From an uncultured Chloroflexia bacterium (GTDB lineage: Bacteria; Chloroflexota; Limnocylindria; Limnocylindrales; CSP1-4), in assembly GCA_963746845.1 (NCBI GenBank), contig CAVVCZ010000005.1:32001-96000 (forward strand): a DNA stretch of 64,000 nt, read 5' to 3'. Under the pieces are notes generated by a model, which was not told the origin of the DNA, did not search any database, and worked only from the letters and a program-made list of their open reading frames with translations. Made by a program: the position numbers and the translations under genes. The stretch's first letter is position 1, and each line of letters starts with the position of its first letter. Of the stretch, positions 3,125 to 17,184 are shown piece by piece.

Positions 3125-4038
3125 GTCGCGATCCGGACGAAGCGCCGCGCAATGACCCCGACCGTCACGAGGGTGATCGCGATCGCGCTCGCGAGGAAGG
3201 TCCAGGTCGGCAGGTTGAAGAAGAACAGCTCCTCGGGCAGCCGGTTGCCGAAGAACAGGGCGCTCGTGCCGTCGAGGATCGTGCCCGGGCTGAGCAGGAC
3301 GAGGACGATGCCGGCCGGCCCGGAGCCCTGGGCGATGACCGCGCCCGCGACGAGCCCGGGCAGGACGAACAGGGCGATGATCCCGGCCGTCGCGTATGCC
3401 CGGCGTGGCGTAAACGCCGAGACGACCATCGACAGGCTGCCGAAGAGACCGGTGATCACGAGGGCCTGGGCGAGGACCGCGGGGAGCGTCGGCAGGTCGT
3501 CCACGAAGGCCGCGGCGATGTCGGTCGAGAGCAGGACCCGACCGATCAGGAGGATCGTCATCGGCAGGAGAAGCAGCAGGAGGAGGGCGAGGCCGAACCC
3601 GGCGAGCCGTGCCAGGGCGTAGTCCGAGCGGCGCATCGCCCGGGCGAAGTACAGGGCGAGGACGCCATGGCGCTGGTCGCGCGAGAACAGCTCCGGCGCC
3701 TGAGCCGCGCAGAACAGCGCGATCACCGCGTCGATCGAGGCGTAGTAGGTGTCGTAGTCGATCGGCGACGCCGACTCGAACTGCTCGCGGGCGCCGAGCC
3801 GGGCGGCCAGCGTGAGGATCCCGACCACGACGATCGCCGGCAGGATCGCCATCGCCCCGAGGACGACCGGCGCGACCTTTGCGCGACCCCCATGGCCGAT
3901 CCCGTACGCCGTCCGGAAGCTGTCGATGACCATCGACCGGATCGCGTGGGCTCGCCCGAGCCGGGGTCCCTCGTAGCGCCGGTAGCCGAGGTCGTAGATG
4001 CTCCCGGCCCGGACGACCGGCGTGGTGGTCTCGGTCAT
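3121..4038 (-). CDS. ABC-2 type exporter permease
   Basis: IYDLGYRRYEGPRLGR N-terminus, multiple TM segments and DQRHGVLALYFAR motif. Confidence 0.85.
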   Translation of the reverse strand: MTETTTPVVRAGSIYDLGYRRYEGPRLGRAHAIRSMVIDSFRTAYGIGHGGRAKVAPVVLGAMAILPAIVVVGILTLAARLGAREQFESASPIDYDTYYASIDAVIALFCAAQAPELFSRDQRHGVLALYFARAMRRSDYALARLAGFGLALLLLLLLPMTILLIGRVLLSTDIAAAFVDDLPTLPAVLAQALVITGLFGSLSMVVSAFTPRRAYATAGIIALFVLPGLVAGAVIAQGSGPAGIVLVLLSPGTILDGTSALFFGNRLPEELFFFNLPTWTFLASAIAITLVTVGVIARRFVRIAT

Positions 4039-9612: not shown

Positions 9613-9688
9613 TGGAGCGGGAGACGGGGTTCGAACCCGCGACATGCAGCTTGGAAGGCTGCCGCTCTGCCAACTGAGCTACTCCCGC
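9613..9688 (-). tRNA. tRNA-Gly(TCC) with encoded CCA
   Basis: GCGGGAGTAGCTCAGTTGGCAGAGCGGCAGCCTTCCAAGCTGCATGTCGCGGGTTCGAACCCCGTCTCCCGCTCCA, 76 nt, folds as a full cloverleaf. Confidence 0.97.
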
Positions 9689-12088: not shown

Positions 12089-14827
12089 TCAGCGGCGGCC
12101 GCTTCGCGAAATGAGGCCGATTTCTTCGCCGCGCAGCACCGCCGCTCGGCGGCTGTTCACACCGAGCTTCGCGTAGATGCTCTTCGTGTGCGTTCGGACG
12201 GTGCTCAGCGCCACGACCATCTCGTCCGCGATGCCGGGGCCATCGAGGTCGGATGCGAGAAGCCGAAGAACGTCAAGCTCTCGATCGCTGAGTGGCTCAG
12301 GCAGACGCGGCTGACCTGTTGCACGGCGTTCGCGGACCCCGAACGCCCCCCGCAGATGTCGAACGTAGTCCGAGGCGATGCCGCGACTGGCCGCCAGTTC
12401 GAGCATGTCGGCCATCGGGCCGCCCTCGGCCACGAATGTCTGGACGTAGCCCTCCGGTTCCGCCAGGGTCAGCGCGCGACCCAGCGGCTCGAGTCCTGCG
12501 ACGCCGTGGCCGCGATCGTGGTGGGCGAGGGCCTGCAGGACCAGGATCTCGACGACGCTTCGCCATCGCCCACCCGATTCGGCGGCGACCAACAATCGCT
12601 CGAGGAACGTGCTCGCTTCCTGGATCGGACTCGGGTCATGGACCCTGGCGCCATCGGCCAGGAGCACACGGGCAAGGGTGATGTGCTCGTACTCCCGCAC
12701 GTAGCTGAGATCGTCATCGACCGATACTCCGCAGTCGTCGGCCCATGCTCGGGATTCGCGCAGACGGCCACGGGCGGCCTGGATGCGCGCGGCTTGCGCC
12801 GGGACGGGCCGGGTCACCGGGTAGTACTCGCTCACGAAGACGCGTTCGGCATCCTCCAGGAGGGCGAGGGCACCATCAGCGTCTCCGTCCGTCAGACGGA
12901 GCTGCGCCATCGCGACGCGCCATCGATAAGGGTTCTGGGCCAAGCCGCCCTCGTCCCCGAGATCATCGCTCTGCCGTAAGTGGTCAGCGGCAGCATCGAG
13001 GTCGTTCCACTCCAGACAGAGCTCGCTCATCCCCACGTGCAGGTCGGCCGCTCCGCGGAGGATGGTCGTCCCGTCGCCGGTCGCGGCTCGCAGGCCACGT
13101 TCGTAGGTCGTCATCGCCTCGCGCAGACGACCCTGGGCGATTCGGATCTCCGCCAGCGGCCGGTTGCAGCCGATTGCATCGACGGCGTGGCCCGCCTGCT
13201 GCAGGCACGCCATGGCCTCCGCCCAGAAGCCGTTGGCGGCCTCGAGATCGCCGCTTCCCCAGTGCGCCAAGGCAAGGAACCCCGCCGCCCCGCCGCGCCC
13301 GAGTGGATCGTCCTCGCCGGCGAGGTCGAACGCCCGCAGGGCGAATGCCTCCGTGCGCTCGCGGTCACCGTTGATCTGTGCCTGGGCGGCCCGATACAGG
13401 GCAACCGCACTCGGCAATCTTCGGAACTCGCCTTCGTCCACGACGACCATCGCTGGGGGCGGGCCCGGATCCCCGCCATCGGCATCGAGTACCGGTTCCA
13501 GCCATCGCTCGGCCCCTTGAAGCAGCACCTCGACGTCCGCGAACTCGCCGTTGGACATCAGGGCTCCGACATACCCCACGCTCAAGACGGGGCGAGTCTG
13601 GAACAGCTGGGCGGGCAGCAGCTCGAGCCAACGCCGCATCGTCGCTTCCTCGCGCGTTTGTCGGAGGCCCGGGATCGCCGGCTCGATCATCGCCGCGGCT
13701 CGCTCGTAGTCCTCCCCGGCGAGAGCATGGCGAATGGCCTCCGAGGGCTCACCACGCTGCTCGTACCACCTGCTCGCGCGTCGATGGAGGTCATGGACGC
13801 GATCCGGCTCCTCGCGTTGCAAGCGTGCCCGCAGGACGTCCGCGAACAGGTGGTGGTATCGGTACCACTCGCGGCGCGCGTCGAGTGGGATGACGAAGAG
13901 GTTCCGTCGATCGAGGACCTCAAGCATGGCCTGTCCGCCCTCTTCTCCCGTGACCGCATCGCAGAGGGCACCGCTGAGCCGGTCGAGGATGGACGTCCAC
14001 AGAAGGAACCGGCGCACATCCTCGGTCTGGCGCTCCAGGACCTCCTCGGCCAGGTAGTCGACCACGAAGCGATCGTCGCCGGTGAAGCCTCGGATGAAGT
14101 CCGGAACATCGTCCCGGCCCTGCATGGAGAGAGCGGCGAGCTGGAGCGCAGCGATCCACCCATCCGTTCGTTCTTCCAGCGCGGCGACCTCGCTCGCGCC
14201 CAGATCCAGACCCTCCACCCCATTGAGGTAGGCCGCCGTCTCGTCACGCGTGAAGCGCAGGTCCGCAGCTCGTATCTCGATGAGTTGACCTTGAGCCCTG
14301 AGACGGGCCAACGGGAACGGTGGATCGGCGCGCGTGTTGATGACGACGTGCACCGATGGCGACAACTGGTCCAGGAGGAACGACACCTGGTCCTGGACAT
14401 CGCTCGCTTCGATGAGATGGAAGTCATCAAGCACCATCACGATGTCGGCTCCGACCGAGCCAAGCTCGTTGGCAAGGATCGTCACGACCGTTTCGATGGG
14501 CGTTTGCTGCGGGGCTTCCATCATCGAAACGGCGGTCCGTGCCGATGGCACCGCCCGATGGACGGCTGTCGCGACGCCGAACCAGAAGGCGCCAGACTCG
14601 TTGTCGGCCGGGTCCAGGGACAACCACACGGGGACCAGGTCGTCCGAGCCGGCGGCCGCGAGCCAGTCGGCGAGCAGCGTGGTCTTGCCGAAGCCGGGCG
14701 GGGCGGAGATGAGCGTCACCTTGGCGCGCGTCGCTCGACGAAGTCGCTCTACGAGCCGTGGTCGGGGCACCAAAGACTCGCGCGGACGCGGAACGTAGAA
14801 CTTCGAATCGGGGAGGATGCGAGCCAC
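12089..14827 (-). CDS. MalT-like STAND ATPase / LuxR transcriptional regulator
   Basis: SAPPGFGKTT Walker A, VLDDFH Walker B, WYRYHHLF and C-terminal LuxR HTH (LSDRELDVLRLL..TVRTHTKSIYAKLGV). Confidence 0.93.
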   Translation of the reverse strand: MARILPDSKFYVPRPRESLVPRPRLVERLRRATRAKVTLISAPPGFGKTTLLADWLAAAGSDDLVPVWLSLDPADNESGAFWFGVATAVHRAVPSARTAVSMMEAPQQTPIETVVTILANELGSVGADIVMVLDDFHLIEASDVQDQVSFLLDQLSPSVHVVINTRADPPFPLARLRAQGQLIEIRAADLRFTRDETAAYLNGVEGLDLGASEVAALEERTDGWIAALQLAALSMQGRDDVPDFIRGFTGDDRFVVDYLAEEVLERQTEDVRRFLLWTSILDRLSGALCDAVTGEEGGQAMLEVLDRRNLFVIPLDARREWYRYHHLFADVLRARLQREEPDRVHDLHRRASRWYEQRGEPSEAIRHALAGEDYERAAAMIEPAIPGLRQTREEATMRRWLELLPAQLFQTRPVLSVGYVGALMSNGEFADVEVLLQGAERWLEPVLDADGGDPGPPPAMVVVDEGEFRRLPSAVALYRAAQAQINGDRERTEAFALRAFDLAGEDDPLGRGGAAGFLALAHWGSGDLEAANGFWAEAMACLQQAGHAVDAIGCNRPLAEIRIAQGRLREAMTTYERGLRAATGDGTTILRGAADLHVGMSELCLEWNDLDAAADHLRQSDDLGDEGGLAQNPYRWRVAMAQLRLTDGDADGALALLEDAERVFVSEYYPVTRPVPAQAARIQAARGRLRESRAWADDCGVSVDDDLSYVREYEHITLARVLLADGARVHDPSPIQEASTFLERLLVAAESGGRWRSVVEILVLQALAHHDRGHGVAGLEPLGRALTLAEPEGYVQTFVAEGGPMADMLELAASRGIASDYVRHLRGAFGVRERRATGQPRLPEPLSDRELDVLRLLASDLDGPGIADEMVVALSTVRTHTKSIYAKLGVNSRRAAVLRGEEIGLISRSGRR

Positions 14828-14996
14828 GCGTCAGGGTATCGCGCGCGCGATCAGGCTCGCGTCCTCTCACCGATCTCCGCACGCGCGACGAGACGACCGA
14901 GCGACGCGGCGAGTGAGATGACCGGGGGACGGTAGGAGTCCCATCGACCCACCGACTACTTTGCCTACTACCCTTGCCGCACCCGGCATGACCTGG

Positions 14997-15042
14997 CATG
15001 GAGCTTGGAAGGCTGCCGCTCTGCCAACTGAGCTACTCCCGC
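14997..15042 (-). repeat. att-site copy: 5' half (positions 1-46) of tRNA-Gly
   Basis: Identical to 9643-9688 except for one base. Identity begins exactly at tRNA G1 and ends just past the anticodon arm. Confidence 0.93.
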
Positions 15043-15061
15043 GACGTCTCGGGTCGGCTGC

Positions 15062-15092
15062 TTGACCTTCAAGTGACTCGAAGGTGTACGGT
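15062..15092 (+). promoter_or_regulatory. MerR-type promoter (19-bp spacer) with dyad operator
   Basis: TTGACC-N19-TACGGT. Dyad ACCTTCAAGT-g-ACTCGAAGGT (15065-15085, 9/10 match). GTG lies 6 nt after the -10. Confidence 0.85.
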
Positions 15093-15098
15093 CGGAGC

Positions 15099-15941
15099 GT
15101 GAAGGTGTCGGAGCTCGCCGAACGCGCCGGAATCGCGCCGTCCGCCGTTCGTTGGTACGAGTCCGTGGGCATCCTGCCCGCGCCGTCGAGGAAGCCCAAC
15201 GGGTATCGCGAATACGCGGACGAGGACCTCGCCCGGCTCCGGCTGGTCGTCAGCCTGCGACGGCTCGGCCTCGGGCCCGAGGACGCCGGGCGGATGGCGC
15301 GACTGTGCCTCGAGCGCGGCGAGGTGGACCGTGATCTCGTGCCGATCATCGCCGCGCAGCGCGCGGCCATCGCCAGGCAACGCGAGGATCTCGACCGCCT
15401 CGACGGCGAGCTGATCGACCTTGAATCCACGATCGCCGCCGCGGGACGCGCCCGTGGCCGGAGGAAGGACCGAGCCATGACCGATTCGCCCATTCGGGTG
15501 CTCTTCGTCTGTACCGGCAACAGCGCTCGGAGCCAGATCGCCGAGGCCGTCCTCGATCGCCTGGGTGGCCGCGACTTCGAGGTCATGTCAGCCGGCACGG
15601 AGCCAAAGGGCGTCAACCCGTTCACGCTCCGCGTCCTCGGCGACGCCGGCATCGACTGGTCGGGGGCGCGCAGCAAGTCGGTCGACGAGTTCCTTGGTCA
15701 GCCGTTCGACTACGTCATCACGGTCTGCGACCGGGCTCGCCAGTCGTGTCCCGTCTTCCCGGGCCAGCACAACACGCTCCATTGGGGCCTCGAGGACCCG
15801 GCCGAGGTCGAGGGCTCTGAGGCCGAACGGCTCGCCGCCTTCCAGCGCACGTACCTCGAGCTCAACCAGCGGATCCGCCCGTTCATCGAGGTGGCGCTCC
15901 GTGCCGTGGGCCGGGCGCCACGGGCGTCGATCGCCGGTTGA
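15099..15941 (+). CDS. arsC: MerR-family regulator fused in frame to an LMW-PTP-type arsenate reductase (ArsC) domain
   Basis: N-terminal VSELAERAGIAPSAVRWYE..NGYREY plus coiled coil. C-terminal RVLFVCTGNSARSQIAEA..TVCDRARQSCPVFPG..HWGLEDP. Internal SD and ATG at 15477. Confidence 0.88.
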   Translation: MKVSELAERAGIAPSAVRWYESVGILPAPSRKPNGYREYADEDLARLRLVVSLRRLGLGPEDAGRMARLCLERGEVDRDLVPIIAAQRAAIARQREDLDRLDGELIDLESTIAAAGRARGRRKDRAMTDSPIRVLFVCTGNSARSQIAEAVLDRLGGRDFEVMSAGTEPKGVNPFTLRVLGDAGIDWSGARSKSVDEFLGQPFDYVITVCDRARQSCPVFPGQHNTLHWGLEDPAEVEGSEAERLAAFQRTYLELNQRIRPFIEVALRAVGRAPRASIAG

Positions 15942-15954
15942 GGGCGCTCCCGCG

Positions 15955-16290
15955 TCAGGTGCGGGCTTCGAGCACCGGCAGTCGACGCGAGGCCACAGAC
16001 GGGAGTCCGATCACGGGGCCGAACCCACCGGCGAGCTCACGGAAGCGGGCGACGGCCTCACTGCGAAGCGAGTACCAGACCCAGGTCCCGCGGCGTTCCG
16101 CGGCCACCCAACCGGCGTCCCTCAGGACCTTCAGGTGATGCGACACGGTGGGCTGGCTCACGTCGCAGCAGGCGGTGAAGTCGCAGGCGCAAACCTCGGC
16201 GACGTCGCTCAGTTGACGGAGGATCGCCAGGCGCGTCGGGTCGGCAGCGGCCTGCAGCAGAAGGACGTCGGGGTCGGTCTGGCGCTTCAT
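15955..16290 (-). CDS. arsR: ArsR/SmtB-family repressor
   Basis: ADPTRLAIL..EVCACDFTACCDVSQPTVSHHLKVLRDAG..ERRGTWVWYSL. Divergent from arsM. Confidence 0.9.
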   Translation of the reverse strand: MKRQTDPDVLLLQAAADPTRLAILRQLSDVAEVCACDFTACCDVSQPTVSHHLKVLRDAGWVAAERRGTWVWYSLRSEAVARFRELAGGFGPVIGLPSVASRRLPVLEART

Positions 16291-16297
16291 CGGGACA

Positions 16298-16337
16298 CTG
16301 TATTGACAAATGTCTATCTTGACAAGTATCAATACAG
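16298..16337. promoter_or_regulatory. ArsR operator in the divergent arsR/arsM promoter region
   Basis: AT-rich patch with outer inverted repeat CTGTATTGA...TCAATACAG and two tandem imperfect palindromes, TTGACAAATGTCTA and TTGACAAGTATCAA. Confidence 0.78.
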
Positions 16338-16374
16338 CGACGACGACAGGAGCACGATCAAGGAGCCGCCGGCG

Positions 16375-17184
16375 ATGACGACCGAGACCATCCACGAAAC
16401 CGTTCGCGAGCATTACGCCGCCGCCGCCGTGCGGGCCTCGCAGGGGGATTCATGTTGCAGCGACCCCGAGACGGTCGGGGCAATCCTCTACTCGGCGCTC
16501 GAGCGCGACGAGCTGCCCGACGCGGCCGTCCTCGCATCGCTGGGCTGCGGCAACCCGACGGCTGTCGCGGACCTCCATCCGGGCGAGCGGGTCCTCGACC
16601 TGGGCTCCGGCGGCGGGATCGATGTCCTGCTGTCGGCGAAGCGGGTCGGACCGACGGGCCGCGTGTTCGGGGTCGACATGACCGACGAAATGCTCGCCCT
16701 CGCCCAGCGCAATGCCGCCGAGGCGGGCGCGACGAACGTCGAGTTCCTGAAGGGCCAGATCGAGGCGATCCCGCTGCCCGCCGAGTCGATCGACGTCGTC
16801 ATCAGCAACTGCGTCGTGAACCTCGCCGCCGACAAGACGGCCGTGTTCGCCGAGATCGCGCGCGTCCTGCGACCCGGCGGTCGTATCGGAATCAGCGACA
16901 TCGTCGCCGAGGACGGCCTGGACGCGGCACAACGCGCCGAGCGTGGCTCGTACGCCGGCTGCATCGCCGGCGCCCTGTCGATCTCGGAGTTCCGCACCGG
17001 CCTCGAGGCGGTCGGGATGACCGACATCTCGATCACGCCGTCGCACCTCGTCACGGACGGGATGATCAGCGCGATCATCCGGGCCTCGAAACCCGCAGAT
17101 GCCCGACCGCTCATCGACCTCGCGGCACCGCGGGAGCTCCCGCTCGCCGAGGCCGGCTGCTGCGGTGGCGAAGGCTGCTGCTGA
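16375..17184 (+). CDS. arsM: Arsenite S-adenosylmethionine methyltransferase
   Basis: VREHY..SCC, SLGCGNP, VLDLGSGGGID, ISNCVVNL and YAGCIAGAL, plus a Cys-rich tail GCCGGEGCC. SD AAGGAG. Confidence 0.93.
   Translation: MTTETIHETVREHYAAAAVRASQGDSCCSDPETVGAILYSALERDELPDAAVLASLGCGNPTAVADLHPGERVLDLGSGGGIDVLLSAKRVGPTGRVFGVDMTDEMLALAQRNAAEAGATNVEFLKGQIEAIPLPAESIDVVISNCVVNLAADKTAVFAEIARVLRPGGRIGISDIVAEDGLDAAQRAERGSYAGCIAGALSISEFRTGLEAVGMTDISITPSHLVTDGMISAIIRASKPADARPLIDLAAPRELPLAEAGCCGGEGCC

Follow-up and report, generated by a model that had tools for sequence, protein, structure and literature searches.

Can a single bacterial gene sense arsenate, switch on its own promoter and supply the enzyme that reduces the arsenate? 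The question is raised by a gene in the window, the 64,000-nucleotide (nt) stretch of DNA from an uncultured Chloroflexia bacterium that was analysed here, in which one open reading frame (ORF) joins the DNA-binding half of a MerR-type regulator to an arsenate reductase, ArsC. We refer to this gene, merR-arsC, and to its product as the fusion. Our reading is that the fusion would be a one-gene, self-regulated arsenate-reductase module on the MerR plan, a full picture in which we place about even confidence. Within it, comparison among relatives gives good support to a layout like that of TipA, in which a self-activated gene is predicted to yield both a long regulator and a shorter enzyme. What appears to be new is a MerR-type, TipA-like circuit contained in one gene, with an enzyme as its sensor.

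The fusion gene and the parts of its product are placed as follows.

15099-15941, plus strand: long ORF merR-arsC, GTG start, 280 amino acids (aa) plus stop, frame uninterrupted
15099-15299, plus strand: MerR winged helix-turn-helix (wHTH), residues 1-67, from Pfam and an ungapped CueR alignment
15306-15308, plus strand: codon of C70, the sole cysteine of the MerR half, from the alignment with CueR
15330-15437, plus strand: predicted dimerisation coiled coil, about residues 78-113, aligned to helix 5 of CueR/MerR, with limits taken from the alignment
15438-15497, plus strand: variable basic linker, residues 114-133, carrying the internal Shine-Dalgarno (SD) sequence and start, from alignment columns
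15498-15884, plus strand: arsenate reductase domain of the low-molecular-weight protein tyrosine phosphatase (LMW-PTP) fold, residues 134-262, PF01451, with C138, C210 and C217
15510-15512, 15726-15728 and 15747-15749, plus strand: codons of the ArsC cysteines C138, C210 and C217, in the motifs CTGNSARS, TVCD and SCP

Every sequence feature named in the original prediction, which was made from the letters alone, was found where it had been placed. One open frame (15099-15941) does link a MerR wHTH and predicted coiled coil to a complete LMW-PTP-type ArsC with its set of three cysteines (C138, C210 and C217), and the MerR half does carry a single cysteine, C70, and no C-terminal metal loop. Conservation was assessed in a set of 64 fusions consisting of the window, 43 of 50 loci from species-representative genomes and 20 genes from a sample of the window's class. 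Seven loci with a broken or over-long frame were dropped (L019, L026, L041, L043, L046, L052 and L062), and every coding sequence that was kept differed from all the others. The relatives are all metagenome bins, some with frame errors, and counts across them are not independent. They are 274-290 aa long and begin at a homologous ATG or GTG; across the set the long form starts with ATG in 34 genes and with GTG in 30. Two other starts were considered and rejected: the GTG at 15084 (285 aa) falls within the promoter and lacks conservation, and the start used in a database record (278 aa, P0002), which would correspond to 15105, is GTC in many relatives.

The MerR half was recognised by two Pfam models, PF13411 (MerR_1; 50.7 bits against a cut-off of 21.6, residues 1-67) and PF00376 (45.3 bits against 28.2). 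Residues 1-110 of E. coli CueR align with it free of gaps, and by this alignment residues 78-110 of the fusion match CueR helix 5. Inspection of the translation revealed no cysteine beyond residue 70 in this half and no cysteine-bearing loop following the predicted coiled coil. The metal-sensor equivalogs scored far under their cut-offs (TIGR02044, 49.3 against 147.4; TIGR02051, 49.0 against 150.85; TIGR02043, 42.8 against 167.95), and a Pfam search of the fusion for the TipAS-type domain, PF07739, gave no match at E <= 0.01. Judged by its DNA-binding half and its promoter, the fusion belongs to the MerR family; judged by the missing metal loop and the low equivalog scores, it is outside the metal-sensor subgroup. 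The residue C70, a cysteine in 62 of the 64 fusions, pairs with F70 of CueR, a position in the hydrophobic core (residue numbers counted by hand), and its role may be structural only. We had considered C70 as the counterpart of the metal site formed by MerR C79 and CueR S77, and rejected this on the same pairing with F70.

The C-terminal half is the enzyme. Residues 134-262 matched LMWPc (PF01451) with 71.6 bits against a cut-off of 23.2, and the closest solved structure was PDB 8p5n (E = 2.6e-38), the ArsC2 of Deinococcus indicus with arsenate bound (described in the excerpted text of PMC10483234); B. subtilis ArsC, PDB 1jl3, matched at E = 2.6e-27. The P-loop cysteine, C210 and C217 align with the corresponding cysteines of both structures. 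C138 and C217 were present in all 64 fusions and C210 in 48, the remaining 16 having serine. Positions of the P-loop were invariant in 63-64 of the 64 fusions save T139, and the residues that bind the oxyanion, G140, N141, S142, A143, R144 and S145, are invariant among fusions. In sequence the C-terminal half thus bears the hallmarks of thioredoxin (Trx)-coupled ArsC. In such enzymes, as set out in the excerpted text of PMC6193951, the oxyanion is held in the P-loop, an adduct forms on Cys10, and a C10-C82 disulfide is followed by a C82-C89 disulfide; the same text describes marked shifts in conformation and dynamics between the reduced, C10-C82 and C82-C89 states.

The fusion could be an artefact, in which separate merR and arsC genes were run together through a fault in sequencing or assembly or the recent loss of a stop codon, and several relatives from long-read metagenome bins do show frame breaks in this gene (the reason for dropping seven of the 50 loci). 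The comparative data refute this as far as the sequences can speak, and its probability is negligible. When 5.8 billion proteins were searched, each of the 120 best relatives proved to have the fusion's three Pfam domains, with identities of 75-100%. Among species-representative genomes the fusion turned up at 50 loci, complete or almost complete, and nearly all of these were in bins from metagenomes whose labels read Chloroflexia, Chloroflexota or Candidatus Limnocylindrales. Of 301 sampled genomes of the window's class, including 12 flagged as unpublished (none of them positive), 55 contained essentially the whole protein in an open frame at 56-88% identity, so that the joined MerR_1 and LMWPc architecture is conserved among relatives. 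None of the relatives examined had a stop between MerR and ArsC at the junction, and two short-read contigs from soil metagenomes crossed the domain junction without gaps (X1, 15291-15553; X2, 15387-15537); both came from a single study, possibly of the window's source sample. The fusion is, on this comparison, an old conserved gene and neither a stop loss nor an assembly error.

Its distribution is narrow. The positive genomes of the class sample belonged to the window's family (40 of 92) and a second family (15 of 103), and no fusion was listed in the other three families among the 301 genomes. When 401 genomes of the phylum were searched at E <= 1e-70, 15 were positive, all in the same two families, and the 361 genomes from other families gave no fusion match at that threshold. 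Among 72,556 plasmid records none covered at least 80% of the fusion; 1238 matched the ArsC or the MerR half. In the genomes searched, the fusion thus appears confined to one class of Chloroflexota. Three protein clusters share the MerR plus LMWPc architecture, commonest in Chloroflexota (homologue P0028), and databases name such proteins automatically as 'MerR family transcriptional regulator' or 'arsenate reductase'. We did not find the fusion described in the literature searched, a search to which subscription journals and supplements did not belong.

Some observations at the margins of this distribution may be recorded. A few fusion records stand under other phyla (L038, P0028 and P0083; Candidatus Sulfotelmatobacter of the Acidobacteriota and 'Patescibacteria group'). 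They nest among Chloroflexota sequences at 70-85% identity, which points to contigs that were wrongly binned or labelled and not to transfer. Two genomes carry two fusion copies, G020 (L104) and G143 (L103); in one second copy, L103, the internal start is gone and the dyad is degenerate at 6 of 9 pairs. Matches in two stretches among the 150 best representatives were set aside, being tandem LMWPc-LMWPc proteins and not MerR fusions. Such tandem proteins, 282-411 aa long, are frequent among the representatives closest to the ArsC half (P0139, P0145, P0153, P0176, P0141, P0144 and P0130).

Upstream of the fusion lies a promoter that points into the gene itself.

15062-15067, plus strand: -35 hexamer TTGACC of the MerR-type promoter
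15065-15085, inverted repeat: 21-bp dyad ACCTTCAAG-TGA-CTCGAAGGT, presumed operator of the fusion protein
15087-15092, plus strand: -10 hexamer TACGGT, with a 19-nt spacer from the -35 hexamer and 6 nt to the GTG at 15099

The arms of the dyad found by the repeat search (15065-15074 and 15076-15085) are 10 nt each and 90% complementary. A promoter of this form, TTGACC-N19-TACGGT with a 21-bp dyad, had been seen to point into its own gene, and the comparison bears this out: TTGACN-N19-TANNNT with a spacer of exactly 19 nt occurred within 150 nt upstream of 61 of the 64 fusions, and in 59 of these the -10 hexamer lay 6 nt (49 genes), 7 nt (9) or 8 nt (1) from the start codon. DNA farther upstream of the -35 hexamer is unrelated among relatives, while the promoter is kept. 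In the three-cysteine clade A the half-sites read ACCTTCRAG...CTYGAAGGT, and in a sister clade, clade B, they read ACYTTGCAG...CTGYARGG. Both arms have been altered in step in clade B, with symmetry, 19-nt spacing and distance to the start retained, as is expected for an operator bound by a protein, and the recognition helix also differs between the clades (for example A16G). The dyad pattern occurred once in the 3.56-Mb genome of the window at up to 2 mismatches (a reversed control, 0 times), and all five clade-B genomes searched likewise had their sole match upstream of the fusion gene. As the genome has no second such operator, the evident regulon is the fusion gene itself, and autoregulation through the dyad is, on this pattern, highly probable. 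A regulator whose own gene is its sole detectable target makes sense only if the product carries the regulated function.

The -10 hexamer ends 6 nt ahead of the start codon, and transcription is therefore predicted to begin at the first base of that codon. The leaderless start put forward in the original prediction is consistent with the habits of the genome as a whole: among 62,364 candidate ATG or GTG starts of long frames, a TANNNT stood 6 nt ahead 220 times and 7 nt ahead 142 times, compared to about 20 times at most other distances. By this measure the leaderless spacing is habitual in the window genome, with roughly ten-fold enrichment, and leaderless mRNAs are probably common in the organism, at several hundred genes. 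Genes led by an SD are also present, such as arsM with AAGGAG, and the 3' end of the 16S rRNA has the usual anti-SD. A few relatives depart from the common arrangement, though most of these still have the promoter. In L025 and L026 it is followed by a leaderless mini-ORF of 17 or 8 codons, some 60-90 nt ahead of position 4001, whose stop overlaps the ATG of the fusion (ATGA); L049 has an in-frame extension of 21 residues; and in L039 the dyad lies about 200 nt upstream with an ORF starting MRIAILSGVH in between.

The second control element lies within the linker.

15460-15469, plus strand: internal SD GGAGGAAGGA, duplex energy with the anti-SD -9.3 kcal/mol
15477-15941, plus strand: short ORF, stand-alone ArsC, 154 aa plus stop, in-frame ATG

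An SD and ATG (15477) at the ArsC boundary had been pointed out before, and their conservation holds for one part of the family and fails for another. An in-frame ATG, GTG or TTG stands 10-12 codons ahead of the catalytic cysteine in 45 of the 48 three-cysteine fusions, with an SD of -5.5 to -12.7 kcal/mol; the arrangement is not conserved in the 16 clade-B fusions or in L085, L102 and L103. Only 10% of the 494 other in-frame ATG, GTG and TTG codons in the same genes reach -6 kcal/mol. In the 45 clade-A genes the internal start is ATG in 31, GTG in 13 and TTG in 1, and positions -14 to -8 are 87-100% purine compared to 49% across the coding sequence. Codon usage at this column points the same way. 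Where it encodes valine the codon is GTG in 13 of 13, compared to 29% of valine codons generally (276 of 954), and the lone leucine is TTG, which makes up 2.7% of leucine codons. The linker peptide varies, the commonest residue at positions 121-130 filling 0.29-0.64 of the column in clade A. Since the SD and start are kept while the peptide changes, the conserved feature is the nucleotide signal. That this signal has decayed where the catalytic set, or the need for it, is lost, and is kept elsewhere at 65-100% identity, argues for an internal start that is used and not merely inherited, and the short product is probably made. Folding of the RNA around the internal start showed no stability beyond chance (z = +0.63), and the fusion alignment contained no further stretch of suppressed synonymous variation hinting at an internal promoter.

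The genes beside the fusion concern arsenic.

15955-16290, minus strand: arsR, 111 aa, HTH_5 53.9 bits, NF033788 90.2 bits above a cut-off of 55
16366-17184, plus strand: arsM (arsenite methyltransferase), NF008823 292.4 bits above a cut-off of 263, divergent from arsR

The arsR gene, which encodes a CxC motif, is convergent with the fusion and lies 14 bp downstream, with no intrinsic terminator between the two. Its promoter, TTGTCA-17-TACAGT (16297-16325 of the window, minus strand), also ends 6 nt ahead of the ATG. In the window arsM is followed by an EamA-family transporter and an MFS transporter. Among the 50 related loci, 25 had arsR and/or arsM within the approximately 4 kb fetched, in various orientations. 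Stand-alone relatives of this ArsC sit in the arrangement arsM<-arsR->arsC (L051, L053, L055, L056, L058 and L060), and in a quick, poorly resolved tree of ArsC domains they interleave with the fused clade-A forms. Elsewhere in the window genome, on another contig, two LMWPc genes follow phoU, one of them encoding a three-cysteine ArsC that shares about 50% identity with the fused domain; an ArsB-family gene is present, and Acr3 was not found in this genome (92% complete).

Two neighbouring observations are noted for their own sake. At the phoU locus (L084, contig C7, 857-2870) the first LMWPc gene has serine for the P-loop cysteine and the second encodes the three-cysteine ArsC, so an arsenate reductase appears to be located in a phosphate-transport operon; by eye, the tail of the locus holds a gene resembling SixA-type phosphohistidine phosphatases. 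Upstream of the fusion, a copy of the 5' half of a tRNA-Gly (15001-15043, minus strand) stands 19 nt from the -35 hexamer. The intact tRNA-Gly(TCC) is at 9613-9688 (minus strand), and the pair flanks about 5.3 kb with a MalT/LuxR-type regulator and small genes. The partial copy matches the intact gene base for base over about 41 nt and diverges afterwards, and it may be the scar of an insertion or rearrangement. Soil contigs of other organisms matched only this 43-nt tRNA piece and continued as normal tRNA 3' halves. An Rfam search of 14700-15200 gave nothing except a sub-threshold tRNA match.

The sister clade lacks two of the features on which the proposed circuit draws. Clade B (16 fusions) forms a single branch in the same quick ArsC-domain tree, with an SH-aLRT (Shimodaira-Hasegawa-like approximate likelihood ratio test) value of 100. 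Its P-loop reads CNGNSARS, serine replaces the Cys82 equivalent (C210 of the fusion) and asparagine replaces the aspartate that follows; C70, C138 and C217 are retained. The internal start is absent in 12 of the 16, and the other 4 have a GTG with a weak or misplaced SD (-2.1 to -5.9 kcal/mol). Neither arsR nor arsM was found within 1.5 kb of the clade-B loci. In all 16 (L086-L101) a conserved 163-aa ORF comes next on the strand of the fusion, with the gene of an amino-acid permease behind it (for example, 2336-2824 and 2836-3804 of L094). The 163-aa ORF had no match in Pfam, NCBIfam or PDB; it mostly starts within tens of bases of the fusion stop and, by eye, contains an H-x-H-x-W motif. Since clade B keeps its own promoter in the absence of the Cys82 equivalent and the internal start, its long form must act alone somehow. 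Either the downstream genes would be co-transcribed with the fusion or the long form would itself be the working enzyme. Single-cysteine ArsCs work with other thiol partners, and the clade-B long form might do likewise.

From these features we infer that the fusion binds DNA and activates in response to arsenate, and that two proteins are produced, in the following circuit. The promoter, with its over-long 19-bp spacer and central dyad, would give rise to a leaderless mRNA whose first codon is the GTG at 15099. The 280-aa protein would dimerise through the coiled coil and bind the dyad, its only genomic site, and at rest the long form probably keeps the promoter in a poor conformation. Arsenate engaging the tethered ArsC domain would turn the promoter on and raise both products; engagement could consist of oxyanion binding in the P-loop, of arsenylation of C138, or of the disulfide cascade from C138-C210 to C210-C217. 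On the same mRNA the SD and the ATG at 15477 would give free 154-aa ArsC, the bulk of the enzyme. The As(III) that it yields would be handled by the neighbouring ArsR-controlled arsM and the exporter genes, and a drop in As(V) would turn the circuit off. Of the candidate inducers arsenate is the most likely. Activation of this kind has precedent in MerR proteins on promoters with 19-20 bp spacers, which act by distorting the DNA once the effector domain is occupied (in part from the excerpted text of PMC9909328, in part general knowledge of the family).

A narrower version of the sensing step is that the long form reads arsenate through catalysis itself, with arsenylation of C138 and the disulfide cascade flipping the MerR dimer, and with a long-lived intermediate in clade B; we regard it as possible and hold it only tentatively. 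Work on mutants of pI258 ArsC reportedly leads one to expect that a Cys82-to-Ser enzyme holds the covalent arseno-intermediate longer, and a longer-lived intermediate would suit a sensor role in clade B. Under catalytic sensing, clade B would be a dedicated sensor or a slow enzyme that doses itself.

Several observations weigh against the proposed circuit, and they are taken up here with the alternatives. The nearly invariant C70 has no role in it, and given this conservation the MerR half may not be merely a passive module. A gene of the same layout could instead be a product- or arsenite-responsive activator, the long form sensing As(III) or thiol-reactive metalloids by cysteine coordination through C138, C210 and C217, perhaps with C70 of the partner subunit. 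MerR-family metal sensors do coordinate through cysteine thiolates, and four conserved cysteines are available (C70 in 62, C138 and C217 in 64 and C210 in 48 of the 64 fusions), of which clade B still holds the three-thiol set C70, C138 and C217; arsenite sensing would also give C70 the explanation that an enzyme-as-sensor model leaves wanting. The alignment of C70 with F70 in the hydrophobic core of CueR, away from the metal-site residues, speaks against coordination, as does the entire oxyanion-binding P-loop, which is invariant. A second As(III) sensor would moreover be redundant with the CxC ArsR encoded 14 bp downstream, and we consider arsenite sensing unlikely. The ligand might also be something other than arsenic. 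TIGR02691 was the best-scoring family for the ArsC half, yet its 121.3 bits fell below the equivalog cut-off of 174.3, the P-loop of this fold also takes sulfate and phosphate (excerpted text of PMC6193951), and clade-B loci have the 163-aa ORF and permease in place of a nearby arsR or arsM. On these grounds the fusion could be a sensor of thiol-disulfide state or of oxyanions in general, or a low-molecular-weight phosphatase, with arsenic incidental. We consider this very unlikely. In the window's clade 25 of 50 loci have arsR or arsM no farther than about 4 kb away, stand-alone versions of this ArsC sit in arsR operons and all three cysteines of the arsenate-specific cascade are kept. The nearest solved structure is an arsenate-bound ArsC, and the plasmid records that match the ArsC half are annotated as arsenate reductase ArsC.

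The remaining difficulties concern the two products and the way in which the halves communicate. Clade B retains the self-directed promoter though it lacks the short form, three three-cysteine fusions (L085, L102 and L103) also lack the internal start, and a two-product design is, by this comparison, not essential to the fusion family. In position, the internal start and SD are homologous to those of the stand-alone arsC genes of the lineage (M-S/P-D-x-P-I-R-V-L-F), so the conservation could be partly inheritance, and the clades compared for it represent few independent lineages. The linker varies in sequence and in length (the whole protein measures 274-290 aa), as would be expected of a loose tether more than of a classical, rigid MerR effector domain packed on the coiled coil. 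Taken to its end, this gives a gene in which ArsC is a mere passenger: the MerR half would autoregulate constitutively or by another ligand, the internal start would be an unused remnant, and one protein would be made. The poor linker conservation, the homology of the start and its absence from clade B and three other fusions all fit such a passive tether. An unselected remnant should decay, however, as it did in clade B, L085, L102 and L103, and 45 of the 48 three-cysteine fusions, 65-100% identical, keep it; changes of the start are limited to ATG, GTG and TTG, and the purine run is kept across differing linker peptides. A regulator that targets only itself would also be pointless were its product not to perform the regulated function. 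A passive ArsC is thus improbable. For the self-regulated arsenate circuit, the variable linker means that coupling between ArsC and MerR may be by tethering or autoinhibition and not through a rigid interface.

How does the fusion compare with known systems? In TipA, according to the excerpted text of PMC7762955, sensor, activator and neutraliser come from one gene by way of two translation products. TipAL/TipAS of Streptomyces and AlbA/AlbAS share with the fusion an N-terminal MerR wHTH and a MerR-type promoter of their own, they have the coiled coil that is predicted in the fusion, and an internal in-frame start gives a C-terminal domain that alone neutralises the inducer, as is predicted for the fusion. 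Unlike TipA, the fusion ends in an enzyme of the LMW-PTP fold and not in a TipAS-type ligand-binding domain, its neutralisation would be catalytic reduction rather than sequestration, its presumed inducer is an inorganic oxyanion, and its long-form mRNA is leaderless by promoter geometry. Lacking the TipAS domain, the fusion is by its domain content not a member of the TipA class and is alike only in layout. With CueR, MerR and ZntR it shares the gap-free alignment to CueR 1-110 and a promoter in which a 19-bp spacer contains a central dyad; the outer bases of this dyad, ACCTT...AAGGT, presumably resemble those of CueR-type operators. Unlike these regulators, it lacks the C-terminal metal loop and its cysteines, scores far under the equivalog cut-offs, and is transcribed from the promoter that it would regulate rather than divergently. 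With the Trx-coupled ArsCs (S. aureus pI258, B. subtilis and D. indicus ArsC2) it shares the LMW-PTP fold, the CX5R P-loop (C138...R144), the Cys82 and Cys89 equivalents C210 and C217, and the DP acid loop; unlike them it has a DNA-binding domain, about 15 additional C-terminal residues and a TIGR02691 score of 121.3 against 174.3.

Repressors of the ArsR/SmtB type also regulate arsenic resistance, and the ArsR gene adjoining the fusion controls arsM. ArsR represses until As(III) releases it; the fusion, unrelated to it in fold and in logic, is built like a MerR-type activator and has a sensor domain predicted to bind As(V). Enzymes that carry a catalytic and a DNA-binding domain in one polypeptide are familiar as trigger enzymes, among them PutA and BirA, whose turnover can set their own transcription. 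To our knowledge none of these is of the MerR type or makes a short enzyme from an internal start, and their folds differ. We likewise know of no bacterial regulator that senses arsenate directly; known arsenic regulation is by As(III)-responsive ArsR repressors, and arsenate therefore induces resistance only after it has been partly reduced.

If the proposed circuit is correct, a MerR activator with an arsenate reductase as its sensor would close this gap. It would be the first bacterial regulator to sense As(V) itself and a MerR protein with a working enzyme as effector domain, so that an enzyme would join the short list of MerR effector domains, and the TipA design would have arisen independently against an inorganic toxin. 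The natural pair of clades, one with three cysteines and an internal start and one with two cysteines and none, offers a ready comparison for the mechanism, and a single gene with a 31-bp promoter is a compact candidate part for arsenate-specific biosensors. Chloroflexota of the Limnocylindria type are abundant in soil and uncultured, and a circuit of this kind in them would bear on how soil communities handle arsenic.

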